IMG/VR virus record: IMGVR_UViG_3300032313_000500
Location: 54,471 to 118,470 of that record
Length of the DNA stretch: 64,000 nt
From: a virus
Direction: 5' to 3' (one strand)
Shown here: in pieces, positions 33,328 to 55,546 of the stretch
How the letters are laid out: every line of letters begins with the position of its first letter
Numbering within the stretch: the stretch's first letter is position 1
The notes under the pieces: generated by a model
The model's input: the letters and a program-made list of their open reading frames with translations, nothing else
The model's database searches: none
Told to the model about the DNA's origin: nothing
Made by a program: the position numbers and the translations under genes

Positions 33328-33524
33328 AACTTCACTCTATCGGTAATAGAGGGTAAACACAACCTCAAACAAAATAAAGTTATACACAGAGTTATACACA
33401 GCCCACGCTGCGCTAAAACAAAAAACATCATTCCTAATCTACTAACGGTGGCGGAAAGCAAATGGGAATAACTGTCTAGACGCAAGAAGACAACGACGGG
33501 GCTGCGGCGGGAACGTGCAAAAAA

Positions 33525-33713
33525 CAAAAAAAAGAACCCCAACCCGAAGGCTGAGGCTCTAATTCCTTGTGACTCACCATTAGAACTCCCAAGGAAGAGT
33601 TTATGTTTGGTCGTGAGACAATCCAGCAGGTAGGGCTTCTCTGCATAATTGTGGTATTCCCAATCGCCGAGTTGCCTCAGTCTTTGGTTTCCACCTCGGT
33701 GTCCTTTACCGAT
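33525..33713 (-). ncRNA. Candidate ~190-nt structured sRNA
   Basis: Repeated promoter whose start position reads ATC rather than ATG; GNRA hairpins; ends in a UUCG terminator at 33533-33560. Confidence 0.45.
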
Positions 33714-33785
33714 ACTTACACTCTATCGGTTGTAGGGTGTAGTTGCAACCCCAGACCAGAAAAAGTCTGGCGAGTCCCGAGAACG

Positions 33786-34037
33786 TTAGTCCTTGTTGTT
33801 TTCCTCGTACCACAGCGTCTTCACCACTTCAGCCACTTTGATGTGGATGTAATCGTGATGAAAAGGGTCAAACATGGTTCCCCGAATGCGTTCGGCAACG
33901 GCGGGGCGCTCCTTGTCCAGTTTGTTGAAGAACACCTGACCTAGTCGCTTTTTGTTTGCTGGGTGTTCCCAAGAGGCATACACCCTATCCACAAACTCTT
34001 CGTAAGTTCCGTCTTCGTAGTGGTCGTCGCACGTCAT
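33786..34037 (-). CDS. Hypothetical protein
   Basis: MTCDDHYEDG..RLGQVFFN.L; coupled to upstream small ORFs 34034..34141 and 34138..34305. Confidence 0.65.
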   Translation of the reverse strand: MTCDDHYEDGTYEEFVDRVYASWEHPANKKRLGQVFFNKLDKERPAVAERIRGTMFDPFHHDYIHIKVAEVVKTLWYEENNKD

Positions 34038-34137
34038 TCGTCGGCCCCGTCTTCGTTCTCTGTTTCGCACAGGTAAGCGTTAGCCCAAGACTCCATGAAG
34101 TCGTTGTACGCCTCCATGTCCTCCCATGTCCAGTCTT

Positions 34138-34305
34138 TCATTTCAGTTTCGCCTTGCACCAATCGCACTTACGTCCACCATCTATTGCAGGGTCGTCTCC
34201 GTAAATTAGTTCAATGTCGTAACACTGCGACTGACCGTGTGTCATGCAGTAAAGGTATCTACCGTTACGCCATGCTTTTGGTTTGCGTGTCTCTTGTACT
34301 TCCAT
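34138..34305 (-). CDS. 55-aa Cys-containing protein
   Basis: ATG at promoter variant 34303; YC..H...CDWC. Confidence 0.55.
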   Translation of the reverse strand: MEVQETRKPKAWRNGRYLYCMTHGQSQCYDIELIYGDDPAIDGGRKCDWCKAKLK

Positions 34306-34355
34306 AGTTACACTTTACAGGTAGTAACCACTAATACCAACATGGTGAGAAAGAT

Positions 34356-34646
34356 TTACAGTCCTCTGTTGCTGGCTCGCCACTGCGAGGGTGAGTGGTT
34401 CTCCTCAACGCCCCGCTTCTCGTCTTCGTCGTAGTAGAGGCGCAAGATGTGGATGCACGGGTCGCTTTCCTCAAACTCGGCATCTTCTTCTTCTGTGGTG
34501 GGCAATCCGTCATGCGTATAGCAAATCGGGGCTCCAACCCAGCCGTTTTCGTAACCAGTTTGTAGCCAAGACTCAAATGTCGGCTCTTCGTTTATTCTCT
34601 CCATCATTTCAGATGGGTCAAAGTTTTCTGCATCTTTTCCTACCAT
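34356..34646 (-). CDS. Acidic hypothetical protein
   Basis: WLQTGYENGWVGAPICYTHDGLP...DPCIHILRLY. Confidence 0.7.
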   Translation of the reverse strand: MVGKDAENFDPSEMMERINEEPTFESWLQTGYENGWVGAPICYTHDGLPTTEEEDAEFEESDPCIHILRLYYDEDEKRGVEENHSPSQWRASNRGL

Positions 34647-34804
34647 GCTTGCAGGTTACAGGTTAGAAGCAGGTACGACAACCCGTGCGTCGTTTTCTTT
34701 GGAGAAAGCGAGGGCGCTGTTTGTTCGGCTCTTCCTTCGGTTCTTCCGGCTCTTTCGGAGCCCCGTCGTCTTCTGGTGGTTTTGTCATGTACCCATAATA
34801 CGAC

Positions 34805-34837
34805 AAATGCCCCTCAACCATTTTCAGGTTGGGGGCA
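34805..34837 (-). terminator. Hairpin terminator
   Basis: TGCCCCTCAACC / GGTTGGGGGCA inverted repeat. Confidence 0.6.
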
Positions 34838-35036
34838 CATGACGCCTCATTGAATGGGGGTGTGTGAGGTCTGTGTAAAACTTAGTCTTCTCGGGGCTTC
34901 TCGTCGGGAACTTTTGGAGTAAAAAACGGAGAGTTCATCTTTGCTTTTTCCCAAGCCTTCATAAACTCTTGGCGCTCGGCTTCTATTTCCTCTTCGGTTT
35001 GGGCTGCTCGTCTCATGGAGTGAGCATAGCAAATCT

Positions 35037-35327
35037 TCACCCTGTCTTCCACCAAATTCGGTCGCCTTCGTACTCGTCTTCGTACTCGTAGTCCATCCCA
35101 AACTCTCTATCAAGGCACTCATGACACCTGTTCTTGACGCTTACTTCTCGTCGTGCGTACTCAGCCATCTCTTTTGCGGTCTTAGTTGCCCCGCATTCGT
35201 TGCAACGGGCTGGTCTGTCGGCTACAAACTTGCGATAGTACGCCTGCCTGCGCCTCATGTTCCTGAGGTTCTTGCGTTCGGTCGCTTGTCGTTGCGCTCT
35301 ACGCTGCGCGGGGCTGACTCTCTCCAC
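35037..35327 (-). CDS. Basic Zn-finger hypothetical protein
   Basis: GGAGAGG RBS; CNEC and CHEC. Confidence 0.6.
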   Translation of the reverse strand: MERVSPAQRRAQRQATERKNLRNMRRRQAYYRKFVADRPARCNECGATKTAKEMAEYARREVSVKNRCHECLDREFGMDYEYEDEYEGDRIWWKTG

Positions 35328-35422
35328 TATTCCTCTCCTGCTAGGTCTAGACAGTACTTGCACTCACCGTTGCTACTGCAATGGCAATGGTCGGGCATCT
35401 CTGGGGTTGTGTATTTACTCAT
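35327..35422 (-). CDS. 31-aa Cys-rich micro-protein
   Basis: MSKYTTPEMPDHCHCSSNGECKYCLDLAGEE; ATG at the repeated promoter. Confidence 0.55.
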   Translation of the reverse strand: MSKYTTPEMPDHCHCSSNGECKYCLDLAGEE

Positions 35423-35605
35423 ACCTTCACTCTATCGGTAGTAAAGGGTAGTTCCAACCTGCAACAAAAGAAAGTTATCCACAGGTTTATCCACATCTAC
35501 GAAAAAATCAAAAAAAATCTCAGACCCCCTGGGGTGTGTCATAGTTTCTAATCTTATAACGGTGGCGGAAAGCAAATCACGGGGCATCGCCAGATGCCGT
35601 GATGG

Positions 35606-35902
35606 CTAACCAACCCTCATGTTGTCAGGCTTATGCGTGTCGTTCGGGTTGCGAACCACAAATGTGTTTTCGGGCGCACGACCTTTGTACTCGTAGTCAA
35701 GTGCGTCGGCGTGGAACAGGGCGAGCCCCGTCTTGGCTAGATAATCGTCAAGGAAATCTTGCATTGCGCTCAAACGGGCAAACGAAATAGAGACCGTAAA
35801 GGGTTTCGTCGGCGAACCGACTTCCATCTCCCTCAGCAGTTCATCTGTCGTGATGCCAAGAGCCTCGGCAAGTTTCTTGATGTCTTTGGCTGTTTTCCTC
35901 AT
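35606..35902 (-). CDS. Small protein with XRE-like helix pair
   Basis: IKKLAEALGITTDELL; ATG at the repeated promoter. Confidence 0.6.
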   Translation of the reverse strand: MRKTAKDIKKLAEALGITTDELLREMEVGSPTKPFTVSISFARLSAMQDFLDDYLAKTGLALFHADALDYEYKGRAPENTFVVRNPNDTHKPDNMRVG

Positions 35903-35939
35903 ACTTTCACTCTAGCGATAGTAAGAGGTAAAGACAACC

Positions 35940-36152
35940 TCACTCCTCGTATTCTTCGTCTAGGGTCAGGCAACCGAGAGCGTTGCTTGCTCGTGCGATT
36001 TCCTCGTCGCTCCACGGCAAGTCCTCGGGCCAGTCCTGTGGCTTTCCGTACCACCATGATGTCATGTGGCCACTCGGGCCAGTCAAGGCTTTGAGAGCCT
36101 CTCTTAGTTCTTCGGCTAGTCTTGCTACTTCTGTTATTTGGGTTTTCCTCAT
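35940..36152 (-). CDS. Hypothetical protein
   Basis: ATG at the repeated promoter. Confidence 0.65.
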   Translation of the reverse strand: MRKTQITEVARLAEELREALKALTGPSGHMTSWWYGKPQDWPEDLPWSDEEIARASNALGCLTLDEEYEE

Positions 36153-36259
36153 ACCTTCAATCTATGGATAGTAAAGGGTAGAAACAACCTGAACCCAAAC
36201 TTTTTTCAGAATGTTTCCCGTGAAACAATTAGGCATGCCTAACAAGCATTACGCAACTG

Positions 36260-36295
36260 AGGGGTGTGTCAAGGTTTAGGGGTGTGTCAAGGTTT
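36260..36295. repeat. Perfect 18-bp tandem repeat AGGGGTGTGTCAAGGTTT x2
   Basis: 36260-36277 and 36278-36295. Confidence 0.85.
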
Positions 36296-36687
36296 CAGTC
36301 GTACTGCTTGTCGCACATCATTGAGCGAACTTGGTCTGCGCTCAGCAGGAAGCCCCGTGCTGGGTTGTCGCCATCAGAAGCGAGACCAATCTTGGTCATC
36401 GGCTGGTTCGCCCGAAGGTATCTCTTTAGCCGTGCAACGCTGACAATGAAGAAGGAATCCGGGGCCAACCGATAAACCCACCAGTCGGCTGTTGTTACAT
36501 TTATACCTGACAACTGCCAGTCTTTACCTGCTGGCTTTTGCTCTGTTTCCACTACCATCTTGCCGTTACGGTACCTGTCCGACTTGACCTCAACGGCCCC
36601 GCTGCCGAACAACTCTCTTGCGTTGTCCTCACCTGCTTCTCCGTATGTAAGGTCGGCTTGAAAGTCAAAGCGTGGTTCGTATCCCAT
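36295..36687 (-). CDS. PD-(D/E)XK-like nuclease
   Basis: VEVKSDRY..GKMVVETE...SGINVTTADWWVY. Confidence 0.6.
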   Translation of the reverse strand: MGYEPRFDFQADLTYGEAGEDNARELFGSGAVEVKSDRYRNGKMVVETEQKPAGKDWQLSGINVTTADWWVYRLAPDSFFIVSVARLKRYLRANQPMTKIGLASDGDNPARGFLLSADQVRSMMCDKQYD

Positions 36688-36800
36688 TCCTTTACGCTAT
36701 CACGGGGCTACGCACGGGCAACTAGCGAGATGAGTGGAGACAGCCAAAAGCCCCCTAGCCTGTCCTGTCGGAGGGCTTCGGGGGCTGTGGTGTGGCTGTG

Positions 36801-36878
36801 CTATTCGCAGTCGCACGAGTCAGGCTTGTCATACCCGAACTCGTAACCACACTCAGGACAAGTGCTGGTTTCGTTCAT
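36801..36878 (-). CDS. 25-aa CxxC micro-protein MNETSTCPECGYEFGYDKPDSCDCE
   Basis: Own promoter (36896), GGAGGAGG RBS, downstream hairpin; paralog at 32874. Confidence 0.55.
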   Translation of the reverse strand: MNETSTCPECGYEFGYDKPDSCDCE

Positions 36879-36970
36879 TTTACCTCCTCCCCATTCATAA
36901 CTTCATCATATCGGTAATAAAAGGTAAAAACAACCTCACGCCGAAAATAAGTTTGTGGTATTCTGCGCTC

Positions 36971-37237
36971 ATGCCAAGCACGTGGGGCAGCAGCCCCGAA
37001 GACAGTAATTCATTTGTTGGGAACGACATTCCTCAGTACACGAAGTTCTTTGACTTACACGAGATGGACTTTGAGATGCGACGGGTCTCGGGACTCTGGG
37101 ACGTTCTGGCGTGGACTCGTGACAACGAAGATGTTTGGGCTGTGTCCAAGAAGTGCGAGTCGCTCGGAGATGCGTTCAACTCCTGTTACACAGAAGTGAA
37201 AAAACAGATGCGTCTTCTCAGCCCCGAGGAAAACTAA
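36971..37237 (+). CDS. Hypothetical protein, single + strand gene in a minus-strand block
   Basis: ATG 36971; followed by a terminator. Confidence 0.6.
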   Translation: MPSTWGSSPEDSNSFVGNDIPQYTKFFDLHEMDFEMRRVSGLWDVLAWTRDNEDVWAVSKKCESLGDAFNSCYTEVKKQMRLLSPEEN

Positions 37238-37269
37238 AAAACCACCCACCCGAAGGCAAGTGGCTTTTT
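37236..37269. terminator. Bidirectional terminator
   Basis: AAAAAACCAC..CCGAAGG..GTGGCTTTTT. Confidence 0.6.
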
Positions 37270-37280
37270 GTGGAGACTGT

Positions 37281-37502
37281 TTAGATGTAAGAGTTTGAGT
37301 CCATGTAAGACTCAACCGACAACTCGTAGTCCGAAGTGAGTTCCCACTCTTCCTCGGTACCCTCGTTACCGTTCCCTAGCCAGTCCTCGTAGTTCTCGTT
37401 GTACCTGTCCGAGTCCTTGAAGTCTTCTTCTGCCCTGTCCCAAGCGTCTTGTGCTTCACAAGCGTCTTGGTAAGGCTGTTCTAGCCATTGGTCGTAACCC
37501 AT
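37281..37502 (-). CDS. Very acidic hypothetical protein
   Basis: AAAGGA RBS after the repeated promoter. Confidence 0.7.
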   Translation of the reverse strand: MGYDQWLEQPYQDACEAQDAWDRAEEDFKDSDRYNENYEDWLGNGNEGTEEEWELTSDYELSVESYMDSNSYI

Positions 37503-37614
37503 AACGTTTCCTTTCTTGGTTGTAATAACATACTAAGGGTAGTAAAAGGTAAAAACAACCTGCTAAAGAAATAAGTTATCCACAGGCTGTCCGTGCGGAA
37601 GGCGTTTTGCTGGG

Positions 37615-37782
37615 CTACCGAACACGTGCGTTGATGTCAATGAAACGGAAGCAGGCTTCGCTTCGTTCGCTCTCGTCTTCACACAGCAATACCGCTGTTG
37701 CCTGAGCCCCGGTCAAGTCGTAAAGGCGCACATACCTAGCGTGTTCGCAGACATACGGGTTTCCAGTCAGTTCGTCTTTCAT
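37615..37782 (-). CDS. 55-aa hypothetical protein
   Basis: ATG at the repeated promoter; VCEH...LCE...C. Confidence 0.55.
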   Translation of the reverse strand: MKDELTGNPYVCEHARYVRLYDLTGAQATAVLLCEDESERSEACFRFIDINARVR

Positions 37783-37906
37783 AATTCCAGTCTATCGGTA
37801 GTAAGGGGTAAAAACAACATCGGATTATTCCGATGGTTTCATTGTTCTCTCTGCTTGCAACGCAACCAATAGTGTTACCTAATCTAGTTACGGTGGCGGA
37901 AAGGAT

Positions 37907-38218
37907 TTATTCGGCGATTGCCCAGACTCGTGAAGGACGCCCCGGCTTACCGAGTGTGTGGCAGTCGTCAATAACTTCCACTCTGCCTTCTTCTTCCAAG
38001 AACAGCAAACGCTTGGTTGCGTTAGCCTTATCCATGTCAAGCAGTTCGGCTACGGCAACTGTGCGAGCCTCACCCATTAGGGCAACGGCGAGATACACGG
38101 CTTCGGTTCGGGTTAGTTTGTCAAACAAAGCGTCACGGAGAGATGAGAAGTCGCTGATAGAAGCAACGACCTTTCCATCTACCATGAGGTTTGTTCCAGT
38201 CATAGTAATGTTGTTCAT
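37907..38218 (-). CDS. Winged-helix (TrmB/MarR-like) DNA-binding protein
   Basis: LTRTEAVYLAVALMGEARTVAVAELLDMDKANATKRLLFLEEEGRVEV..GRP. Confidence 0.75.
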   Translation of the reverse strand: MNNITMTGTNLMVDGKVVASISDFSSLRDALFDKLTRTEAVYLAVALMGEARTVAVAELLDMDKANATKRLLFLEEEGRVEVIDDCHTLGKPGRPSRVWAIAE

Positions 38219-38267
38219 AAGTCCATAATACCGATAAGAAGTCAAAACAACAACCTATCGTTTAGAT

Positions 38268-38462
38268 TTATTGGAACAGGGTTGGTTGGTCGTCGGCGAT
38301 GTTACGGGGCATGCAGACCTCATGTGCGTACGTGTGGTGGTTAGTAGCCACATACTTCACATTCTGTGTTACACCTTTAGCCCAACCTGTAATCAGGTGG
38401 TACACGCCCGATGAGCGTGGGTCTACTTCGTGGTCGCAAAAGTCGCATTTGTACTGAGCCAT
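38268..38462 (-). CDS. Small Zn-finger protein
   Basis: CDFC...HEVC. Confidence 0.6.
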   Translation of the reverse strand: MAQYKCDFCDHEVDPRSSGVYHLITGWAKGVTQNVKYVATNHHTYAHEVCMPRNIADDQPTLFQ

Positions 38463-38569
38463 GTAGTCCCGAGTCTAGAAGTTCTTTATCAGATAAGCAA
38501 CGACAATGAAGCCGATGAATGTCGTTCCGTAGAAAAATAAGTCGCTCATAATCTCTCTTGCCTTCTTTG

Positions 38570-38695
38570 TTAGAAAGGGTCTACCGTTTCTTCGTCTGCG
38601 CACTCATCGCACACATCGCCACACGCTAAACATTCTTCGCATTCTTTGAAGTACTTATCGTACTCTTCTTGGTCTCTAAAAGGTAGTAATCCCAT
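38570..38695 (-). CDS. 41-aa Cys-rich micro-protein
   Basis: ..ECEECLACGDVCDECAD..; ATG at the repeated promoter. Confidence 0.55.
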   Translation of the reverse strand: MGLLPFRDQEEYDKYFKECEECLACGDVCDECADEETVDPF

Positions 38696-38731
38696 ACCTT
38701 CATACTATGGGTAGTAAGAGGTAAAAACAAC

Positions 38732-39151
38732 CTAAGTATGTATTTCTTTTTGAACAGCGTCTGCTTCACACCTGAGACAGTCACGCTTGCGCCATGCGCC
38801 GTTCGGGGCTCCGAAGTACGTGTCTGAGTTGCCACAGTAGTTTTCACACTTGTCGCCCCAAGTCCATGCGTACTCACAGCATGAAGGAACTTCTATGCCA
38901 CTGCCGTTCATGTTCGGGTGTCCACCACCGTTGGGAAACAGGTATTTAGCCAGCCCCGGAAGTGCTTCCAGCATCTTCAGACAGCAGTCGTGACATAAGT
39001 GTGCTTCTTCTTCGTCACAAGGGAAGTTGTCAGAAAAGCCACCGTAGTGACCTAAAGAGCAATTACCTAGCGACCAGCCGTAATCAATGAAGTTGCCTTG
39101 TTGCTGAGAAGTCGGGGCCGCCACGCCACAGTTGGTGCAGGCTAGCGTCAT
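38732..39151 (-). CDS. Cys-rich hypothetical protein
   Basis: CTNC, CHDCC, CLRC; coupled to the upstream gene. Confidence 0.65.
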   Translation of the reverse strand: MTLACTNCGVAAPTSQQQGNFIDYGWSLGNCSLGHYGGFSDNFPCDEEEAHLCHDCCLKMLEALPGLAKYLFPNGGGHPNMNGSGIEVPSCCEYAWTWGDKCENYCGNSDTYFGAPNGAWRKRDCLRCEADAVQKEIHT

Positions 39152-39384
39152 CTTCCCCCCACCATTACGTTGAGTACGTTTTCGCTCGCCCATTTCACGG
39201 CGAGACGGTTCACGGTCATCAAGAACTCGGTTTCGGTTACGCCCTGCTCGGTAAGGAACTCCGTGAGGCGACCCTCGTTGAAGTCGTCAAGCATGTTCGC
39301 TAACGCCTGCGCGCCAGTTGCGCCGATTGAGTAGTACTCGCAGTCAAGTACGCCCTGAAAAGTGTCTGTGTATTTTTCTTTCAT
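39148..39384 (-). CDS. Hypothetical protein
   Basis: ATG 39384 at the repeated promoter. Confidence 0.65.
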   Translation of the reverse strand: MKEKYTDTFQGVLDCEYYSIGATGAQALANMLDDFNEGRLTEFLTEQGVTETEFLMTVNRLAVKWASENVLNVMVGGR

Positions 39385-39658
39385 AATTCCATGATAGGGG
39401 TAGTAAGAGGTAATCACAACTTTTATTGGGGATTATTTCAGAAGTTCTCGGATTAGGGACATCGCATCTGGGTGCCCCGGGTTCATTGCTCGTAATCACA
39501 TTCCATGTTGTCGCAACTTCCGTAGTTCTTGCAGAACGACTCGTAGTTCAGGCACTCTGGGTCGCCCTGAACGGCGTCATGCTGGGCTCTCGGAGGGCAT
39601 CTGCGTGTCACGACTCGCTTGCCAATCCTGTAAGCAATGTAGTTCGTAATCAGTCCCA

Positions 39659-39889
39659 TTAGTTCACCTTGTTGTGTTTTACAACTGCCTTCTCAATGTC
39701 GGCGAGTGCTTTCTCCGTGACTTTGAGCCCCGAGTTCACGAGTCCCATGAAGCCAAGTGGCGTCTGTTCGGCAAGGTCGTAGAACGCATCTACCGACTCG
39801 GCAAGTGCGCTCCAAGCGTTGAGGAACTTCTCCACCCATTCGGGGTCTCCGTTCGGAAGCACCACCGAGATTTCAGTTGCCGTAATCAT
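39659..39889 (-). CDS. Hypothetical protein
   Basis: Coupled to the KTSC gene. Confidence 0.65.
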   Translation of the reverse strand: MITATEISVVLPNGDPEWVEKFLNAWSALAESVDAFYDLAEQTPLGFMGLVNSGLKVTEKALADIEKAVVKHNKVN

Positions 39890-40185
39890 GAGGCTACCGA
39901 GAAGTTAGGCTTGATTTCACGAGCGATAAACGCACCGAGGCTATCTGCCGACATTAGTGCGAACATGGTAGGGAACGGAACGCCCTCGTAGGTGTAGAAG
40001 GTCTCAGCGTTCTTGTACCTGACAACCAGCGACTTCGTACCGACCTCATACTTCCAAAACCCAATGGCACTGCTGTTCTTGGGGCTTGACGCTATGTAGT
40101 TCTCACTAACCCATGCCCACTCGTTGTTGGCGTAGGTGAGGCAATCTCCGATAGTTGAGTTTTCGTAAATAAGTGTTTGTTTCAT
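39886..40185 (-). CDS. KTSC-domain protein
   Basis: SSAIGFWKY...SLVVRYK...YTYEGVP...ALMSADSLGAFI..EIK. Confidence 0.85.
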   Translation of the reverse strand: MKQTLIYENSTIGDCLTYANNEWAWVSENYIASSPKNSSAIGFWKYEVGTKSLVVRYKNAETFYTYEGVPFPTMFALMSADSLGAFIAREIKPNFSVAS

Positions 40186-40224
40186 AAGTTCACTTTATGG
40201 GTAGTAGGGGGTAAACACAACCTC

Positions 40225-40398
40225 TTACGAGGGAATGTTTGCCATTTCGTTCTGAACCAAGTTCAAGCCTTCCACAAGGGCTTTCCAGATGTCCTTCTTC
40301 ACTTGCGTGGGGACTGTGTCTGGCAACTTGTCATAGGCACGGATAGCCGTGCGAATGTCTTGGTGGGTCTGCATTATGTATGTTTCGTAATCACTCAT
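40225..40398 (-). CDS. 57-aa hypothetical protein
   Basis: ATG at the repeated promoter. Confidence 0.55.
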   Translation of the reverse strand: MSDYETYIMQTHQDIRTAIRAYDKLPDTVPTQVKKDIWKALVEGLNLVQNEMANIPS

Positions 40399-40596
40399 AC
40401 CCACACTCTATGGGTAATAAGGGGTAGAAACAACCTCACGCACAAATAAACTTATCCACAACCCTGTGGATAAAGTGCGACAGTTTCGTCGTGGGCGCAG
40501 CCCCGACCTGAGGGGGGCGACTTGCTAGGCGATGCCGACTACGACATTCTTACTCGGGTATCATTGCGAGCCTAGTTACGAGGGTTTTATGTGTTT

Positions 40597-40845
40597 CTAA
40601 TCGTTAGACGGTGGCGGAAGAGTCTCAACTAATGCGAAGTCATCTTCTCTGTACACAAGTCCAAGCCGGGACCCGTTGTCCCAATCAACGTGAACAGTTC
40701 CAAACGAATCTACGGAAGTGACAACTCCTTCATCACCACGAACAAGTTTCGTGTATGGGTCAGTGCAGTTGATTAGCCGTACTCGCTTGCCAACGTATGT
40801 TTTGTAATACGCCAACAGTTCGGGTCTTATTTCTTTTATGTCCAT
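40597..40845 (-). CDS. DUF4314-like SH3-fold protein
   Basis: GKRVRLINCTDPYTKL..GDEGVV..VDSFGTVHVDWDNGSRLGL. Confidence 0.85.
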   Translation of the reverse strand: MDIKEIRPELLAYYKTYVGKRVRLINCTDPYTKLVRGDEGVVTSVDSFGTVHVDWDNGSRLGLVYREDDFALVETLPPPSND

Positions 40846-40896
40846 AACTTCACTTTACGGATAGTAAGGCACAACAACAACCTACGGTCAAGACTT

Positions 40897-41905: not shown

Positions 41906-41908
41906 CTA

Positions 41909-42073: not shown

Positions 42074-42428
42074 GTCTCCATTATGGGGGTAGTAGGGGGT
42101 AATAACAACCTTTTCGGCAAATAACTTATCCACAGACTTATCCACAAACATTCCTGCCTGCGATGTGCCTGCGCTCGCGCGCACAGCCCCGAGACCCGTG
42201 CCTGAGTAAATGCCCTTGTTCGTGAACGATGTAGTGCCGTTCGGGGGGATTATTGTGTTTCTAATCGTCTTACGGTGGCGGAAAGGCTTCATCGGTCATC
42301 TCCACAGACATAGCAATGGTTGTTCTCCCATGCGTGAGTGCAATCCATCGGGGCGTCTGAGAACATTCCCGACCAGTCCGACTTGGCGATAAGCCAACCC
42401 AAAGCGAAACAGTAAATGTACCAACCCA

Positions 42429-45450: not shown

Positions 45451-45700
45451 ACCTTCAATCTATGGGTAGTAGGGGATAACAACAACCTGCCCACTACATT
45501 TTTTTACAAAACTTTCCAGTTTTTCCAAACAACTGACAAAGCCCAAATACTCACGCCAGCGCAGATGAGCGCGAGCCCCGGGTGCACGAAAAGCACGGGG
45601 TAAGCGAACACGAGCATGATGAGCAGATGTTTTAGAATTCGGGACTGCGCCATGATTTTCACTTTCTGTGTTTCTAATCGGCTAACGGTGGTGGAAAGCC

Positions 45701-47671: not shown

Positions 47672-47696
47672 CCCTTACTACCCCTAGGATGGAGCC

Positions 47697-47879: not shown

Positions 47880-48154
47880 CAACTTCTCACCACATACGAA
47901 TCCTTACGGAGGTCTCGTACCCCGAAGGTCCGACCTATGCAAAATGGGATTACTTCTCTATCCCTGATGAGAAGTTGCCTGTGGAGTTCCGAGAGTTACC
48001 CGACCCAGAAAAGTTATACAACTTTCTCAACGACAACGGCTTCTGGCATAAGGGCTGGCAGGAAATCACCCCAGAGATTGACGCTTGGATTGACTTCCAC
48101 CCCGACCTATGTGGGTTGCAAGACGAAATCGCAATAGAGGTGGCGTTCATCTAA
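47876..48154 (+). CDS. Hypothetical protein
   Basis: Coupled ATGA overlap. Confidence 0.6.
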   Translation: MTTSHHIRILTEVSYPEGPTYAKWDYFSIPDEKLPVEFRELPDPEKLYNFLNDNGFWHKGWQEITPEIDAWIDFHPDLCGLQDEIAIEVAFI

Positions 48155-48588
48155 TGGCACTTATTGTTGACATTCAAACAGGAACCGTCTTGGACTCACG
48201 AAACTGTTACGTCGTTATTGGAGAAAACCTAAACGAGACTGATGAACATCTTCTTGAAAACGGTTCAGACCATGAAATCGCTAACGTCGCAATACTCAAC
48301 GGTCTCCCCCTGGAGCCCCGAGCCATGGAGCGAGTGCTTTACGGGTTACATTCAGTGGGGTACGAACCCTCTGCACTGAGGGCACAGGCATCTGTGATGC
48401 TGGACGACTATGCAGACTACGAGTTGAAGATATCGCGGGACCACCTGCAATGGGTTGCAACTCAGGCGTCTGATGCAGAACTGGGAATACTAGGCAGCAT
48501 GTGCGCAGAAGACGACGAGTCGTGGGTCAACTACGAAAAAGTGTTTATACACGCACTGACTGACCTAAAAACCACAGCACCCTTTTAG
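48154..48588 (+). CDS. Hypothetical protein
   Basis: TAATG coupling. Confidence 0.65.
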   Translation: MALIVDIQTGTVLDSRNCYVVIGENLNETDEHLLENGSDHEIANVAILNGLPLEPRAMERVLYGLHSVGYEPSALRAQASVMLDDYADYELKISRDHLQWVATQASDAELGILGSMCAEDDESWVNYEKVFIHALTDLKTTAPF

Positions 48589-48672
48589 TAGCACTGACGG
48601 TGGTGGAAGAGTCACGCTGCGCGTTTATTCAGAAATCCAACTTTTTGGTAACTGACTTACCCCTAGCCTTTT

Positions 48673-48909
48673 TTACTTTTCTTCTTTTTTCTTACTTTTT
48701 GCAGCGGCCTCTGGGGCCAGAGTAACTTCGGCGACTTCAACTACCTCGGCGACTTCAACTGCTTTAGCGACTGGCATCACGAACGAATCGGAACCGATGC
48801 CCTTTGGTTCAGCATCTTGCTTCTTTGGTGCTGACTCAACGACAGCCCCGGACGTCTTCTCAAACGCTACTACTTTTGCCAATGCTTCTTCTGGAGTAAG
48901 TTTTCTCAT
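48673..48909 (-). CDS. Low-complexity Ala/Glu/Lys protein
   Basis: AAGGA RBS before MRKLTP; VEVAEV repeats. Confidence 0.55.
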   Translation of the reverse strand: MRKLTPEEALAKVVAFEKTSGAVVESAPKKQDAEPKGIGSDSFVMPVAKAVEVAEVVEVAEVTLAPEAAAKSKKKEEK

Positions 48910-49062
48910 GATGTTTTCCTTCTGAATAAATCTCGTGAAATAATAACACAACACCGGGGCACCCAGTCGGGACGCAAGTTTCTTATAAATCTTTCTAAGA
49001 ATGTTGGAAGTACCCCTTACTATCCATAACATGGAATTATCACCAACCACAAAGGAGCAACC

Positions 49063-49242
49063 GTGGATACCTATAAAGACCTAGACACGCTTGAAATAAC
49101 GGAAGACAACATTGACGACATGCCTGAATTGGAATGTGAATGTGGATACTTCGGAGAAGGCACATGGACATTCCTCAAGCCATACGACTTTGAGAGTGGA
49201 CAGTGGGTCTGCGCAAACTGCAAAGAGGAGATAATCAGATGA
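49063..49242 (+). CDS. 59-aa Zn-finger protein
   Basis: AAAGGAG RBS; CEC...CANC. Confidence 0.6.
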   Translation: MDTYKDLDTLEITEDNIDDMPELECECGYFGEGTWTFLKPYDFESGQWVCANCKEEIIR

Positions 49243-49724
49243 TTACGACAGAACACATCAACGAGGTACATCGCTCCCTATGGGAAGATGCCATAGAAAG
49301 ATACGGCGACAAGTTCAAGGTTCCTTCTGACGAGATAAACAGAATGTCAACCTACACTCGTGCGCTCTATATTCTTCAAGGCTGGAACGGCTCAGGCAAC
49401 CTTGCTCGCCACCTATCCACCTACTCCATACCAGCAGAAGTGATTACAGACATTGTTTCTGAATACTGCGACGAGGTAGTTGATACCGAAGAACTTCTGA
49501 CGCCACGGCCCCGACGAGCCGATAAGTACGACGCCCTGCTGGCTTGGTCAAAAGACCACCTCTTTGAACAGTTCAACACTGAGCAACTAGTTGAGGTATC
49601 GGGCTTCTCTTACCCCACCACATTGAAGTTCCTGCAGGAGTCTCCGACTTTCCGTAAGGTCAAGAAGGGTCTATGGGAAGTGCGTGATGCAGAGGCTGAT
49701 AAGAAAGCCGAAAAGAATCTGTAA
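49239..49724 (+). CDS. Hypothetical protein with C-terminal wHTH-like region
   Basis: GAGGAG RBS; EQLVEVSGFSYPTTLKFL...KKGLWEV. Confidence 0.7.
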   Translation: MITTEHINEVHRSLWEDAIERYGDKFKVPSDEINRMSTYTRALYILQGWNGSGNLARHLSTYSIPAEVITDIVSEYCDEVVDTEELLTPRPRRADKYDALLAWSKDHLFEQFNTEQLVEVSGFSYPTTLKFLQESPTFRKVKKGLWEVRDAEADKKAEKNL

Positions 49725-49792
49725 ATAGATGTTGTGATTAGGGCTTACTACCCATAACATGAAGTCATAACCAATTGCAAAGGAGCAATAAA

Positions 49793-50512
49793 ATGGAAAA
49801 AGAAATAACACTACCCGAGTGCTGGCAAACACTCAAAGACTGCATGGATTCAGGGATTGACCGAGTCATCCTCTTTGGACCTGCAGGAACTGGAAAGACC
49901 TTTGCTGGTCTCACCTTTGGAAACGTAGGCGCTGGCGCACACCGTTTGGTATGCACAGAAGATATGACTTCAATGGATGTGACTGGAGCGTTCATGCCTG
50001 ACGGAAACGGCAGATTCTCATGGGTCGCTGGTGCTGGTCTCAAGGCTTGGGAAGGTAACGGACTCAACGGTGGTCGCCTCATCGTGGATGAGATTGACAA
50101 GGCGTCGGGAGATGTGTTCGCACTTCTGCTTGCGATGCTTGACTCACCTGAATCTGCGACTTGGGAACATCCCGAGACTGGTCGTATTCATCGTCCGAAA
50201 GACGGATTCTCTGCTGTCATGACCACGAACATTGAGAACATGGAAGAGTTGCCAATGGCTCTCGCTGACCGATTCCCTGTTCGCATCCGAATCAACGCTC
50301 CTCACCCGAGTGCGCTTGAGAAGTTGTCGTACGACTTGCGTGAATACGCAGTCCGTATGTGTGATGCAGGCAAGCGCCGAATCTCACTGCGTACTTTCTA
50401 CGCATTTGACAAACTGCGTAAGCAACTAGGTGATGAGAAGTCTGCAAAGATTATCTTTGGTGAACGAGCAACTTCTGTACTTGACGCCATTGCGATTGAC
50501 AAGGTTCACTAA
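49793..50512 (+). CDS. MoxR/CobS-like AAA+ ATPase
   Basis: GPAGTGKT, LIVDEID, TTN, ALADRF. Confidence 0.9.
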   Translation: MEKEITLPECWQTLKDCMDSGIDRVILFGPAGTGKTFAGLTFGNVGAGAHRLVCTEDMTSMDVTGAFMPDGNGRFSWVAGAGLKAWEGNGLNGGRLIVDEIDKASGDVFALLLAMLDSPESATWEHPETGRIHRPKDGFSAVMTTNIENMEELPMALADRFPVRIRINAPHPSALEKLSYDLREYAVRMCDAGKRRISLRTFYAFDKLRKQLGDEKSAKIIFGERATSVLDAIAIDKVH

Positions 50513-51969
50513 TGAAGCACATTGCCGAACCTGAATGGCTTGGTCGTAAGGATGCCGAACACGGTGCTTGGCAAGTTGAAGACTGCGAACCACGCCGTGG
50601 CATCCCTGCTACTTCTATCGTGGAACGCAAGATGCTTGCGCCTGCACACGACACTGAACAAGCGAGAGTAATCCGTGCGCACGAGATGATGCATGCAAAA
50701 GTTTCTCCTGCTGGAGAATGGGAGCAATGGCAAAACAGAAAAATTGCCAGCATCCAAGGAATGATTGCGTGTGAAGAATTGCGTGTGAACCTGCTCTGCG
50801 ATAGGGCTGGATTTGATGTGAAGTCTCACCTCTCTGACGGTGGAGAAACTGCAGACGGAGAAAGACTTGCCTGCACCAACGACTGGAAGAGTGCTGTGTA
50901 CATGGCTGTAGCCACTGCTGGTACTGCGAGTAACAAGTTGTACCTGAACGGTATCCGTCGTCATAATCGCATTTGGGGTTCTGCACTTGCAGATATCTCA
51001 AAGCGAGCAGTCAAAGAAATGAGCAAGGCTGGTCGGGGATTATCAAGTACCGAAGTACACACTCGCACTGGTCTCGCACCATTTGGATTCATCTACACCG
51101 AGAAACTTGCTGAATGGGTTGACCGTCTCGCAGGCTTGCCTGCTCCTGATGAAGAAGAAGAAAGTGAATCTCAAGATTCCTCTATGGAAGTTGAGAACGA
51201 AGACAACAAGAACGGCAAGCGTGAACACTCAAACATCGGAAAAGAAAAAGTCAAAGAAACTGAGTTTCGTGAAAAACTGAAAACAATTACTCCCGACAAA
51301 ATGGACGGTAACGTCCCTTATTGGGGTGAACTTATGATTGACAAGTTGCCACTGCCGATTGTCGCCAAGGGAAACTTAGGCAAGAAGAAGACAGCCTCTA
51401 ATGTTGGTCGGTCACCACGCCGTATCCACCGATACATGACAGACCCACAAAAACGAATCTTTGATAATAAGAGGCGTGGAATGGGTGGAGTCGTATGCGT
51501 TGATGCATCGGGTTCAATGTCTCTGACACAAGATGATGTTCGCAGGATTCTTGAAGCAAGTCCGGGGGCTACCGTTATCGCTTACTCTGATATCCGTGAT
51601 GGTCATCCGAACGCTTGGATTCTCGCTGACAAGGGTCGTATGGTTGATGAAATGCCCGAGATGGGTCAAGGCAACGGTGTTGACTTCCCTGCTCTTGAGT
51701 GGGCAGTGAAGCGTCGCCAGCACTCAACTGCTCCTGTCATTTGGATGACAGACGGTGGAGTCTGTGGACCGAACCAAGGATTCTCTGAAACTCTTGCGAA
51801 CCAATGCACTGCGTTCTGTTTGGAAAAGAAAGTTCACCTGACCGAAGACGCCGAAGCAACTATCGCTCTTCTTCATGCGCTCTCAAAAGGAATCGCAATA
51901 CCGAAGTCACGGTTCCCTTACATGTTGAAGCATGCTTGGGAATCACGAGGTGGGAAACTTCCCGACTGA
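50512..51969 (+). CDS. VWA-domain partner (CobT/DUF2201-like) with N-terminal HEXXH
   Basis: RAHEMMH; VCVDASGSMS (MIDAS), GQGNG, MTDGG; coupled to the AAA gene. Confidence 0.8.
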   Translation: MKHIAEPEWLGRKDAEHGAWQVEDCEPRRGIPATSIVERKMLAPAHDTEQARVIRAHEMMHAKVSPAGEWEQWQNRKIASIQGMIACEELRVNLLCDRAGFDVKSHLSDGGETADGERLACTNDWKSAVYMAVATAGTASNKLYLNGIRRHNRIWGSALADISKRAVKEMSKAGRGLSSTEVHTRTGLAPFGFIYTEKLAEWVDRLAGLPAPDEEEESESQDSSMEVENEDNKNGKREHSNIGKEKVKETEFREKLKTITPDKMDGNVPYWGELMIDKLPLPIVAKGNLGKKKTASNVGRSPRRIHRYMTDPQKRIFDNKRRGMGGVVCVDASGSMSLTQDDVRRILEASPGATVIAYSDIRDGHPNAWILADKGRMVDEMPEMGQGNGVDFPALEWAVKRRQHSTAPVIWMTDGGVCGPNQGFSETLANQCTAFCLEKKVHLTEDAEATIALLHALSKGIAIPKSRFPYMLKHAWESRGGKLPD

Positions 51970-51977
51970 CCGTCACG

Positions 51978-52012
51978 CCCCACAACCACTTGCTCCTTTG
52001 TTGGTTGTGGGG
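51978..52012 (+). terminator. Terminator overlapping the next promoter -35
   Basis: CCCCACAACCA / TGGTTGTGGGG. Confidence 0.7.
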
Positions 52013-52063
52013 TTGTGGCTTACCTCTACTACACATAAGATGAAGTTCTACTAAGGAGTTATT

Positions 52064-52678
52064 ATGCCTAACTGGGTATCAACCACACTGACCGTAAGAG
52101 GTTCAGAAGAAGAAATAAAAAGATTCAAGGACGGAATCAAAGATTCAAAGATTCTTGAGTCGTATGTTCCGTGTCCTACGGAACTGCATGAGACGGTTGC
52201 TGGCTATGTCGGAGACGACAAGGCAGAAGAGCATCGCAAACAACAAGAGTCAAACATCGCCAAGTACGGTCACAAGGATTGGTACGACTGGGCGTACGAC
52301 AACTGGGGCACCAAGTGGGGCGATTGCGATACAGACATTAGCGAACCAATGGCGTTCAGTGACGGCTCATGGGAAGTGCAGGCTCGCTACATGACGGCAT
52401 GGGGACCAGCAGATGCTGGGTTCCTCAAGGTCTCAGCAATGTTCCCTACACTGCTCTTCACTTTTGACTACGACGAAGAGGCTGGCTTCTTTGCAGGCAC
52501 TCAAGCAATGCATGACGGAGCAAGCGTATTTGAGTCCATGTACGAGCCTTGCTCTTACGAGGGCGAAGTGGATTACGATGATTACGAGTCCATTGACAAG
52601 TACGAAGCATGGAAAGAAGCGCAAAGCGACGCTATCTTTGCCGAGTACGCCGAGTTCAGAAAGGGATTACCAGTATGA
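52064..52678 (+). CDS. DUF1281/YubB-like ferredoxin-fold phage protein
   Basis: MPNWVSTTL; DWYDWAYDNWGTKWG; TAWGP; DEEAGFFAG. Confidence 0.8.
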   Translation: MPNWVSTTLTVRGSEEEIKRFKDGIKDSKILESYVPCPTELHETVAGYVGDDKAEEHRKQQESNIAKYGHKDWYDWAYDNWGTKWGDCDTDISEPMAFSDGSWEVQARYMTAWGPADAGFLKVSAMFPTLLFTFDYDEEAGFFAGTQAMHDGASVFESMYEPCSYEGEVDYDDYESIDKYEAWKEAQSDAIFAEYAEFRKGLPV

Positions 52679-52872
52679 CTTACCGAGTAACTGTGCAGGT
52701 CACCACCGATGTGGAGACAAACGACGAAAAAGAGGCTTTTTCTATGGCTATTCAGAAAGTACGTGAGGCTGTCGGCGACAACCAAGACGGCGCCGACGAG
52801 ATGTGGGTAACTGGTGTTGCTCAAGATGCCAACGGATACATGGTCTACCTACAGGGAGAAGACAGTGACTGA
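52675..52872 (+). CDS. Hypothetical protein
   Basis: Coupled to the upstream stop. Confidence 0.55.
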   Translation: MTYRVTVQVTTDVETNDEKEAFSMAIQKVREAVGDNQDGADEMWVTGVAQDANGYMVYLQGEDSD

Positions 52873-53119
52873 CTTATGTGTGCACTGTGGACGCTCAACT
52901 GCGTTCAACTCAGGAGAAGGTCTGTTCGTGAATCGCATCCCAACCGATGATGGGTGGGCATGTGCCGAGTGTGCAGGCTTTGAGTGTGACGAGTGCGAGC
53001 AACCTATCTACCTTGACACTGAAGTCCGTGTTGATTACGAGAAAGACGGAGTCAACCACTACGGCAACTACCACGAAGACTGCTACTCGTTCCTCAAGCA
53101 TGGAGAAAGAGAATGGTAG
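52865..53119 (+). CDS. Cys-rich Zn-finger protein
   Basis: CVHC, CAEC, CDEC, HEDC. Confidence 0.6.
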   Translation: MTDLCVHCGRSTAFNSGEGLFVNRIPTDDGWACAECAGFECDECEQPIYLDTEVRVDYEKDGVNHYGNYHEDCYSFLKHGEREW

Positions 53120-53337
53120 AGATGTGGGGCATGCGACGGGGCTACTGCTATTACTGTAGCGAGTTCGTTGACGACGAGCCCATTTGGCAAGTAGAAGAAA
53201 ATCGCCGAATCGCATGCTGTGCGCAATGCGCTCTTGACCGAGGCATTATCAATCTTTAGCACTTACGGTGGTGGAAAGCCTCTGCTAAATCTGTACAATA
53301 CGACGTGCCCGCTGCGGCCGCAAGAAAAGAGAAAAAA

Positions 53338-53544
53338 ATGAACATTCCGAAAATCTGTCCACGTTGCAACGACAACTTTATTCCTAATAACCTTCAGCCT
53401 GCTGCTTACCCTGGGGCCATTTCTAGAGCAGATGATAAAACAGAAATTTGTTCTGACTGTGGTACTGAAGAGGCTTTGACCCAGTACGGCACGGGAGCGT
53501 GCGAACCAGTCAGTGACTGGCCCGTGCGCAATCGCGTTATTTGA
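53338..53544 (+). CDS. Small Zn-finger protein
   Basis: CPRC...YPGAISRADDKTEICSDCG. Confidence 0.7.
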   Translation: MNIPKICPRCNDNFIPNNLQPAAYPGAISRADDKTEICSDCGTEEALTQYGTGACEPVSDWPVRNRVI

Positions 53545-53788
53545 AAAAAGTTGAATTCCAAACGCGGAGCACTACATAAAAAAATGAAAGTATTCCGCAA
53601 TTCACCCAAGAAATGCTTGAACTGATAACGTTTGAATCAGCAAGTATGTTTGTTACAACCCACAGGAAGACAGTCGTCGCTAGGACACTAAAAATCATGA
53701 AACGAATTCCTTGCTTCACAATATCAAGTGCGTACTGCCGCTCTTCTTCGGGGCTCACAAAATCTGGGTCTGGCCACGAGTTAGACAT
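53537..53788 (-). CDS. Small membrane protein
   Basis: Two hydrophobic helices. Confidence 0.65.
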   Translation of the reverse strand: MSNSWPDPDFVSPEEERQYALDIVKQGIRFMIFSVLATTVFLWVVTNILADSNVISSSISWVNCGILSFFYVVLRVWNSTFFK

Positions 53789-54152
53789 TTGTCTTCTTTA
53801 CAATTTGATGCACGCGCTGGCGGCTGAGGTCGTAAGAATCTGCGATTTGGCGAAGCGTCATCCCTTGGCCGCGCATCTGAAGAATTTCCGAATTTCTATT
53901 ATAATTCGTCGCCGGCCCTGGCTTCAGAGGGCCCCACGTCCAACCGGCAAGATTTTCAAGAATTTGAACTTTCTCCGCCGCCATCTGGTTCTTCTTGTAG
54001 CGCTGCCGGATGTATCCCACCCAAGCCCCGAGGTTCACTTCCGCCCCATCAACAATCTCAATATAAACTGCCGGGACCCGCGAGTGACCGGTACGTTCAG
54101 AGAACTGACGGAGGGCTCTTACATAAAGTTGAAATCTGGTGTTGTTATCCAT
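53781..54152 (-). CDS. Helicase-associated (HA) domain + sigma70 region-4-like HTH
   Basis: ALRQF..RTGHSRVP...LGAWV..IR...LENL.GWTW; GMTLRQIADSYDLSRQRVHQI. Confidence 0.8.
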   Translation of the reverse strand: MDNNTRFQLYVRALRQFSERTGHSRVPAVYIEIVDGAEVNLGAWVGYIRQRYKKNQMAAEKVQILENLAGWTWGPLKPGPATNYNRNSEILQMRGQGMTLRQIADSYDLSRQRVHQIVKKTNV

Positions 54153-54236
54153 GTACAGAAATATAGAACATTTGCTAGCCGCGTGCGCGAATGGTTAGGA
54201 TAAATTAATGAAGACAACTCTTTACAAACCATTACG

Positions 54237-54650
54237 GTGGCGGAAAGGTCCGGTTACGTGAGCAAGAAAAACGAAAAATGGAAAAATTTCATAAGAGATG
54301 TCCGGTCGGCGACGGCTAAACATCCAGAACTTGAAAAGTACATCCAGGAGTCAGAGAAAGAAAATCACGAAAACTTTCTATTTGTCGCTGCCGGCGAAGG
54401 GATGATTGTCCGAGGAATGCATTATCCAGATGGCGCGTTTGAAAATGAAGAATACCCGATAGTATTTCAAACGTTTGATGATGGAGTTGTTATCGCTGCA
54501 TGGCCGCGCTCAATTGTAAAAATTTTAATGGAAACACTTGTAGACAACTTTGATAAATCAAAACACGAAACGGGCTGGGAACTTATTCTCAACGGGCTCC
54601 TAGAACAAGCGCTCGTCAAAATTAAAAATGGAGAAATTAATGGAATCTGA
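54237..54650 (+). CDS. Hypothetical protein
   Basis: Track start lies inside the polar motif; true start probably slightly downstream. Confidence 0.55.
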   Translation: MAERSGYVSKKNEKWKNFIRDVRSATAKHPELEKYIQESEKENHENFLFVAAGEGMIVRGMHYPDGAFENEEYPIVFQTFDDGVVIAAWPRSIVKILMETLVDNFDKSKHETGWELILNGLLEQALVKIKNGEINGI

Positions 54651-55137
54651 TACCTGGAACGCTGCGGCCGCACGAGTCGTAAAAATCATTTTTCAGATAC
54701 TTAACGCGGAGTACGTAGGCATCTCATTAGGTCTTCATGATGTCCGCCGCATGTATGACGAGGTCTGGTCTACCATGAGCACCAATCCAGAACTGGTTGC
54801 TGAAGCAGCGTTTTATAATATCGGGGCCGCGGCACTAAATGCAGCCGGCGCAGCGGGTGTTGAAATAAACGAAGAAAATTTAGTTGATACTCTGGTACGT
54901 AAACAAAGTGATTACGGTCCAGACAATATCGCACGCTTCGGACGTGATGGCATCTTGGTCAGGCTGCACGACAAAATCGCACGACTGGAAAACCTCGCGG
55001 CGAAGGACGAGCCACCGATGAACGAATCAGTTTCTGATAATTACCTAGACGTCATCGGGTACTGCAGCGTTGGGGTCATGTGGGAGACCCAAGAGTTCTT
55101 GCTTCCATTGACGGTGGTGGAAAGCAATCAAGAATAA
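54640..55137 (+). CDS. DUF1599/nucleotide-modification-associated domain 1-like protein
   Basis: RKQSDYGPDNI...GILVRLHDKIARLENL...ESVSDNYLDVIGY. Confidence 0.75.
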   Translation: MESDTWNAAAARVVKIIFQILNAEYVGISLGLHDVRRMYDEVWSTMSTNPELVAEAAFYNIGAAALNAAGAAGVEINEENLVDTLVRKQSDYGPDNIARFGRDGILVRLHDKIARLENLAAKDEPPMNESVSDNYLDVIGYCSVGVMWETQEFLLPLTVVESNQE

Positions 55138-55546
55138 GTCCTCCCCCAATCCCCCGAGACCGAGCGACACAGTTATGAACACGACTGCGCCGACTACAAA
55201 GCCCCGGGGGAACCAAAGGAGCGAAAGGAGGAAACTCTCCTCTGGTGATTTAACTTTATCATATTCGCCGGCCCCGCGCATTTTGAAAAATGTTTCATAC
55301 CTGCGTTGCGGTTTTCCTTTCTTACTGCTATGGTGTACTTCACAACAGATGGCGCGCCCTCCTCATCGTAAAAAAGCATTCCTGAAAAACGGAAACCTTT
55401 TTGTGATGCAGAAAAATAAAAATTAATTTCGTAAAGGTTCCCCCGAACCCCCTCCAAAATAGGGTTGGTCTGTAGATATGTCAAATTCATTTCAAACATT
55501 GTTTAACGACTTGACTATCGGTGGTGGAAAGGATTATGTTAATACC

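Follow-up and report, generated by a model that had tools for sequence, protein, structure and literature searches.

In the genome of an uncultured freshwater phage, a short asymmetric DNA word is repeated along the early-gene block, always on the same strand, and in related phages it is accompanied by one small gene whose product, P0001, is a candidate reader of the word. The DNA analysed, called the window below, is a stretch of 64,000 bases corresponding to positions 54471-118470 (the right-hand 64 kb) of the 118,470-base IMG/VR virus record IMGVR_UViG_3300032313_000500, which is rated 79% complete; coordinates are those of the window. Because the word always travels with the P0001 gene, the likeliest reading is that it serves as an asymmetric docking site for this protein, and we give docking by P0001 about even chances. 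To our knowledge, the phage family has no cultured member, and a literature search for the word returned primers only.

A word locked to one strand of the early block

A first-pass annotation of the window had listed eleven plus-strand copies of a bipartite motif, with none in reverse and none before 33 kb, and had proposed a strand-resolved scan of the full genome and a survey of related phages. Both bore it out. The word, the 14-mer ACGGTGGYGGAAAG, is present at all eleven positions, eight times exactly, once with a single mismatch (55518, TCGG...) and twice with two mismatches and the ending GGAAGA (40608 and 48597); the spellings TTCCRCCACCGT and GACGGTGGTGGAWGA are forms of the same word. 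At up to two mismatches the window holds 14 matches against 0.75 expected, a number reached in 0 of 100 shuffles. Across the whole record, at up to one mismatch, ACGGTGGYGGAAAG has nine forward and no reverse matches, and the other ~96 kb, outside window positions 33445-55531, is free of it on either strand; the shorter GGTGGYGGAA occurs 11 times forward and never in reverse. The sites occupy ~22 kb of the record, and successive gaps measure 2114, 2331, 2718, 1664, 3413, 2912, 4668, 969, 877 and 407 bases, tightening at the right as first described. Six copies (33445-45685) carry the upstream arm (T)TTCTAATC / CTAATC that had been noted for them, but their spacer, annotated as five to six bases, is invariably 5 bases long.

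Below, minus arm and plus arm denote the leftward- and rightward-read parts of the block, which hold sites 1-6 and sites 7-11, respectively (Table 1). The polarity of the word is fixed to the genome and not to transcription, because minus-arm sites oppose the genes around them while plus-arm sites and those of distant relatives run with the genes. The annotation had likewise held that word direction ignores transcription, and that this is no classical operator; the word is indeed real, selected, strand-locked and not a palindromic operator. One base of the core varies, and it does so by arm: it is C in five of six minus-arm sites and T in four of the five plus-arm sites.

Relatives were collected by helicase-anchored and reader-anchored scans of IMG/VR, which gave ~160 loci. 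They show that the word marks a family of uncultured freshwater phages with hundreds of sites and a strand bias of ~400:1, and that it persists, its direction unchanged, down to ~60% helicase identity. Counted in unique contexts, the 10-mer CGGTGGYGGA is found at 127:5 in the helicase-anchored and 229:2 in the reader-anchored set, where chance would give ~1.7 per strand. Four complete records (154-172 kb) and one that is 89% complete (134 kb) have 9-11 copies each, within 11-17 kb and nearly all on one strand, and in the complete relatives the cluster lies away from the record ends. In record G001 (132 kb, 88% complete) 11 copies form one ~24-kb block that wraps the record ends; the variable core base there is C in all seven sites at 3.2-19.5 kb and T in all four at 128.3-130.6 kb, the assignment of these groups to arms being made by analogy with the window.

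A candidate reader travels with the word

P0001 combines an N-terminal HA domain (PF03457, 4e-13) with a C-terminal sigma-70 region-4-like helix-turn-helix (HTH; PF04545, 1e-7), joined by the conserved linker GWxWGPLKPGP. Its recognition helix, LSRQRVHQIV, is invariant in 29 of 29 aligned homologues, and the N-domain is variable. An AlphaFold (AF2) model, with a mean predicted local distance difference test (pLDDT) score of 88, predicts a separate N-terminal module and a three-helix HTH. DNA binding by the HA domain has been reported (Mills et al. 2013, ref. 64 in PMC12191111). A sequence search of the PDB with P0001 gave no match, and Foldseek returned weak generic HTH matches only, none with E ≤0.001.

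The co-occurrence of gene and word is strict. Wherever an IMG/VR locus has a homologue that is at least 49% identical (62 of 62), it also has at least two sense-strand sites, and the pattern [TA][TC]CC[AG]CCACCG occurs in these loci 404 times sense and once antisense. Contigs of metagenome-assembled genomes (MAGs) with a full-length homologue carry arrays in six cases out of six, at 41:1; over both sets, the polar array accompanies all homologues down to ~48% identity. Thirteen long records hold both word and gene, two related records (helicase 67% identity) hold neither, and one 30%-complete fragment has the word and lacks the gene. The spelling of the flank shifts with the protein clade (GGAAAG, GGAAGA, GGATGA), and in a lineage at 45% identity (L171-173) we found a 9:0 array of TATACGCCACCGT, in which only the core RCCACCGT is kept. 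Sites also lie close to the reader gene itself: of 38 unique loci, 24 have one 53-94 bases upstream of the start and 13 have one 6-27 bases past the stop.

Two further features of the reader gene were seen. In many of the loci L130-L159 the perfect palindrome CGAACATATGTTCG (CGAAC-N4-GTTCG) stands ~10-35 bases before the start of the P0001 homologue (e.g. L143:9965-9985); CGAAC-N4-GTTCG is the form of the actinobacterial LexA (SOS) box, and its position suggests SOS-timed expression in these distant relatives. The window's own reader gene has only the right half of the palindrome (ATGTTC). Among loci L162-L179, whose homologues are 42-45% identical, several have a strong promoter, TTGACA-17-TAAGAT, 30-60 bases upstream of the gene, the spacer of which starts TGGTGGTGG, an echo of the word in single copy on the gene's own strand.

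Two classes of site

The conserved block is 14-17 bp long and its flanks are without information. In the distant clade it forms a single 17-base unit, tTGACGGTGGYGGAARr, with no conserved position outside; there ACGG-to-AAAG is also the direction of the neighbouring genes, opposite to that of the reader gene. The variable core base is T in 77% of distant-clade sites. Fifty-six per cent of the sites in this clade read (T/A)TGACG at the -35 position, and TAnnnT follows 17-18 bases on in 26 of 181, in some cases with an ATG after a further 6 bases. In the window's clade the sigma-A/sigma-70 promoter form is essentially absent, a -10 at the right spacing being present in 0-1 of 98 sites, and a generic promoter scan found nothing at the sites. 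The sequences suggest two classes of site, a minority of operator type that overlaps a promoter and a majority that is plain intergenic.

The distant-clade sites bring to mind a different function, in which the word would be the -35 and spacer of a separate, temporal class of rightward promoters read by host RNA polymerase, the sigma-4-like protein perhaps acting as activator and the minus-arm copies firing antisense or regulatory RNAs. The distant block (tTGACGGTGGYGGAAR), with its occasional -10 and leaderless start, would suit such promoters, as would the region-4-like domain of the candidate reader and the positions of the plus-arm sites 53265, 54234, 55111 and 55518, which lie 4-65 bases before plus-strand gene starts. 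We nonetheless consider this improbable: the -10 is missing not only in the window's clade but in ~85% of distant-clade sites too, no downstream position is conserved, and the six sites that are best conserved face the 3' ends of converging genes. Neither sigma-70 region 2 (PF04542) nor a T7-type phage RNA polymerase (PF00940) was found in three records, and Pfam searches of five giant proteins yielded no polymerase; the PF00940 control also matched nothing, so the T7-type negative carries no weight. Sigma-54, extracytoplasmic function (ECF) and FliA promoter forms were considered and dropped.

The strict one-strand placement of hundreds of sites, whatever the direction of the genes, could instead mark a strand-specific DNA signal, either a programmed nick of the T5/phiKMV type or a polar replication or translocation signal for a nickase, a replisome component or a motor. 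Roles of this kind, in DNA entry, translocation, replication or nicking, were what the first-pass annotation had favoured. The sites of T5/BF23 and phiKMV-like phages are likewise all on one strand, the bipartite N5 form resembles the phiKMV nick consensus, which is also bipartite with a 5-base spacer, and the region encodes replication-initiator-like and helicase-loader-like proteins. Confinement to the early block, however, argues against a genome-wide entry, Chi-type or packaging signal, or one like the FtsK-orienting polar sequences (KOPS): in records of 118-172 kb the sites stay within one block of 11-23 kb, whereas signals of those kinds would be expected all along the genome or directed at an end. 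Unlike Chi and KOPS, the word is neither spread nor skewed along the replicon. Unlike the known nick sites, the present ones, which are known from assembled contigs, travel not with a nuclease, none of which co-occurs in the data examined, but with an HTH regulator, which is devoid of a catalytic domain and whose gene usually has a site close upstream; a subset, moreover, overlaps promoters, supplying the -35 and spacer of sigma-A-type elements in distant relatives. This is how the docking sites of a regulator would behave. Entry, translocation, Chi/KOPS-like guidance and genome-wide nicking are not supported, and we see only a slight chance for a nick or replication signal of any kind.

Position of the sites among the genes

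Sites are overwhelmingly intergenic, 67 of 69 in the relatives lying outside called genes. In the minus arm they occur in a fixed order, which in the direction of the genes runs from the stop codon (often 3-8 bases before the word) through CTTTCCGCCACCGT, 5 free bases and a 6-7-base arm to (A/T)AACAC and a short G+C hairpin with a T-run. The 6-7-base arm is constant within one phage and differs between phages, being GATTAG here and GTTTCAG, CTTGAG, CTTAGCGC, GATAGAGA and others elsewhere. Beyond the minus-arm word the mean hairpin energy falls to -8.1 kcal/mol at +34 to +70, against ~-5.5 in the flanks, and before it there is slight hairpin enrichment at most. The minus-arm word, therefore, sits before a sense-strand intrinsic terminator and points against the genes.

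This position between stop codon and terminator would also befit an RNA element, a signal in the minus-arm 3' untranslated region for antitermination or stability; copies on the same strand of oppositely read arms would yield complementary RNAs, so that the plus-arm complement could pair with it. We think this very unlikely indeed. Neither a conserved structure nor covariation was found, Rfam had no match in 30-60 kb, plus-arm copies are not consistently at ribosome-binding sites, and the sites of distant relatives are nearly all on one transcript sense, which leaves RNA pairing there without a partner. Other ideas were dropped: Shine-Dalgarno or anti-Shine-Dalgarno mimicry since the resemblance is a mirror image and not a complement, a G-quadruplex since the fourth GG is not constant, iterons since the spacing is in kilobases, and a tRNA 3'-end mimic.

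The association with DnaA-box/promoter cassettes that the annotation had pointed out holds for four of the six minus-arm sites, directly beyond which, in the minus direction, come a DnaA-box pair and then the next promoter. The pairs (TGTGGATAA, direct or inverted) lie at 33380-33410, 35470-35500, 40445-40475 and 42120-42150, 15-16 bases upstream of the promoters; in relatives, too, both orientations of such pairs occur (TTATCCACA is present twice in L022 and L064).

Within the plus arm, sites 7, 8 and 10 are at convergent junctions and sites 9 and 11 in divergent gaps beside embedded minus-strand genes. Homology with the relatives L012-L014 stops exactly at site 9 (54248) and that with L011 at 48580, and the gene that ends at site 10 (54628-55137) is missing from L012-L014. 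Such breaks might make the word a seam for modular exchange of early-gene cassettes, a linker or recombination site with a secondary regulatory role or none, and direct orientation is what repeated exchange would preserve. Arbiol et al. reportedly described in 2010 mobile regulatory cassettes of T4-type phages, termed PeSL (promoter-early stem-loop), that are comparable in so far as a repeated word is next to both a terminator hairpin and an early promoter, at the edges of small early genes variable among relatives. Unlike PeSL, however, the present word is not the promoter, and it is found at a minority of junctions, 11 of ~60. The breaks at 54248 and 48580 are clear single cases; overall, homology-block ends fall at the word at 1.9x the length expectation against 2.3x at ordinary promoters, as they would at any conserved island. 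No recombinase co-occurs with the word, and dyad arms like those of tyrosine-recombinase cores are missing from the site. An exchange seam thus appears quite unlikely.

Table 1. Sites of the repeated word and the genes of the embedded module (window coordinates; ORF, open reading frame; aa, amino acids)
Feature	Position	Strand	Description
Site 1	33431..33458	+	Full bipartite TCCTAATC-N5-ACGGTGGCGGAAAG; minus arm; leftwards two DnaA-box-like words, then promoter
Site 2	35545..35572	+	Full bipartite; 33 bases past stop of minus-strand ORF 35606-35902; on its left a hairpin with T-run, two TGTGGATAA boxes and promoter
Site 3	37876..37903	+	Full bipartite; 3 bases past stop of minus-strand ORF 37907-38245
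Site 4	40594..40621	+	Bipartite, core end GGAAGA; overlaps final codons of minus-strand ORF 40597-40845; inverted DnaA-box pair and promoter on its left
Site 5	42258..42285	+	Full bipartite; two TGTGGATAA boxes and promoter on its left
Site 6	45671..45698	+	Bipartite, T variant; 2 bases past stop of minus-strand ORF 45701-46126
Site 7	48597..48610	+	Core only, end GGAAGA; convergent junction, 9 bases after stop of plus-strand ORF 48109-48588 and 62 bases past stop of probable minus-strand ORF 48673-49050
Site 8	53265..53278	+	Core only; downstream end of embedded minus-strand module with candidate reader gene
Site 9	54234..54247	+	Core only; divergent gap ~80 bases upstream of candidate reader gene start
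Site 10	55111..55124	+	Core only; within last 27 bases of plus-strand ORF 54628-55137
Site 11	55518..55531	+	Core, one mismatch; in spacer of possible promoter (TTGACT-18-TATGTT-6-ATG at 55547)
Candidate reader gene P0001	53781..54152	-	123 aa, two DNA-binding-type domains
Second gene of embedded module	53537..53788	-	83 aa, no family match

Behind site 6, a minus-strand ORF (45504-45662) encodes a strongly hydrophobic product of 52 aa and starts 22 bases beyond the CTAATC arm; it has no promoter word of its own, and it is the sole minus-arm gene that directly follows a site.

Transcription, gene map and host

A second repeated word, GGTTGTnTTTACCyCTTACTACCcATAgagTGAAGGTATGA, is found in ~25 copies between 30568 and 49775 of the window, and its strand flips with transcription, from minus at 30.6-46.16 kb (e.g. 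38732, 44618) to plus from 46.76 kb (e.g. 46762, 49730). It is built of TTGTnT, 17 bases with the conserved spacer TTACCyCTTACTACCcA, TAnnnT, 6 bases (GAAGGT) and ATG, and reads as a leaderless promoter of the sigma-A type that would give leaderless mRNAs; conservation of its spacer suggests a second, separate regulator. Coding potential likewise puts the genes on the minus strand at 33-46 kb and on the plus strand from 46.2 kb, in agreement with the transcription flip annotated at 46.17 kb, but the plus arm proved not to be pure, as it contains embedded minus-strand genes. Third-codon-position substitutions relative to L011-L014 fit both genes of the embedded module and not the overlapping plus-strand ORF, and two further stretches, 48673-49050 and 55194-55499, probably hold minus-strand genes as well, though these are less well supported, their periodicity giving no clear answer.

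Two genes of the WhiB family (PF02467), a marker of actinobacteria and their phages, lie on the minus strand at 57116-57517 and 25216-25575 (7e-15 and 6e-14). Together with the leaderless promoters and a helicase whose best cultured relatives are in Arthrobacter phages (32-36% identity), they point to an actinobacterial host. GenBank phages contain no near DNA match to this phage, the DNA of which occurs in lake-water metagenomes. In a scan of bacterial genomes the reader gene appeared only on short MAG contigs whose taxon labels disagree and which are probably phage DNA binned by mistake; evidence of a host or a prophage did not emerge. Four riverine metatranscriptome runs searched with 36001-56000 gave only short, unstranded, low-depth contigs that showed no transcript starts or ends. 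Among the 60 small early ORFs (33000-58200) there was a match to an HslV/proteasome-subunit-like peptidase (PF00227, 1e-7; phrog_1040, 1e-24), and there were further matches to a HiPIP iron-sulfur protein, two KTSC-domain proteins and families resembling replication initiators and helicase loaders.

Proposed docking by P0001 and known systems

In its functional form, the reading that we favour is that the word is an asymmetric operator or stoperator-like docking site, a proposal which, judged from sequence, is evenly poised between right and wrong. One P0001 monomer would cover the ~17-bp block, its invariant HTH reading the invariant core (A)CGGTGGY and its variable HA domain the flank that each lineage respells (GGAAAG, GGAAGA or GGATGA, and GTATA in the most distant lineage). 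P0001 would be a plain repressor at the subset of sites that overlap the -35 and spacer, mainly in distant relatives. At the remaining, intergenic sites its binding would, in the way of mycobacteriophage stoperators, bar or insulate against RNA polymerase in an orientation-dependent manner; since all sites are co-oriented while the arms are read oppositely, only polymerases travelling in one genomic direction would be halted. In the minus arm, the site and the adjoining sense-direction intrinsic terminator could then close each junction from both sides. This barrier function, by analogy, is possible but tentative.

Known precedents come from the Cluster A mycobacteriophages (L5 gp71, TipsytheTRex), in which the TipsytheTRex repressor is monomeric and two-domain, has an asymmetric 13-mer as its site and arrests elongation in an orientation-dependent manner (PMC9283540). 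Cluster A operators and stoperators resemble the present sites in being asymmetric words of 13-17 bp that occur in many copies in the short intergenic gaps of an actinobacterial phage, in having an operator-type subset over the -35 besides plain intergenic sites, and in that the candidate reader here is also small, with two putative DNA-binding modules. The L5 site begins GGTGGC, as the word does here. The two systems also differ. Direction is genome-fixed in the window's clade, although the stoperator-like orientation rule does hold in the distant clade; the sites are in the early block and not throughout the genome; the minus-arm sites have the extra lineage-specific arm; and signs of lysogeny, at which no search was aimed, were not seen.

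Several points weigh against docking by P0001. Co-occurrence is partly phylogenetic, most carriers being related phages. An array is missing from fifteen loci whose homologues, at 42-45% identity, have the same recognition helix, so the helix alone does not dictate the word. P0001, with its HA domain and sigma-4-like HTH, has no detectable sequence or fold similarity to the L5/TipsytheTRex repressors of the gp71 type (HTH plus Stoperator domain) beyond a generic HTH. Stoperators follow transcription and the sites of the window's clade do not, so that a barrier model must assume use against antisense polymerases, and no antisense promoter was found. Finally, the arm of the minus-arm sites (GTGTT-TCTAATC-N5) falls outside the 17-bp footprint and is unexplained by it; the arm could be that of a second factor.

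That the six best-conserved sites oppose the local genes and carry the extra arm is a peculiarity that keeps both a second factor and a genome-fixed one-way barrier in play. In the latter case, a docked phage protein would halt any polymerase or replisome crossing the early block in one direction, whatever the direction of the genes, its expression in the distant clade being timed by LexA, the SOS repressor of the host; we regard this as rather doubtful. It would in effect be a polar insulator policing transcription, or transcription-replication traffic, in the manner of Tus-Ter, an analogy that we hold equally loosely. As in Tus-Ter and in the replication terminator protein (RTP)-Ter system, an asymmetric protein-DNA complex would stop a machine from one side, which provides a functional analogy for genome-fixed polarity. 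There is, however, no sequence or protein relation, and Ter sites form two opposed groups round a terminus, whereas the sites here are co-oriented in a transcription-dense block.

Significance

Actinobacterial phages abound in fresh water, almost none of them is in culture, and we know of nothing on the timing of their early genes. New in the present analysis are a candidate reader that strictly co-occurs with the word, an array of altered spelling in the lineage at 45% identity, the putative operator-type subset of sites, the corrected gene map of the plus arm and the placement of the word before terminators. Together they provide a conserved, easily recognised putative control word and its probable reader, a protein whose pairing of HA domain with sigma-4-like HTH is new. 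If one-way binding and blocking prove true, the stoperator principle would extend beyond temperate mycobacteriophages to a genome-fixed directional insulator, and P0001 and its site would constitute a compact orthogonal protein-site pair for actinobacterial genetics.

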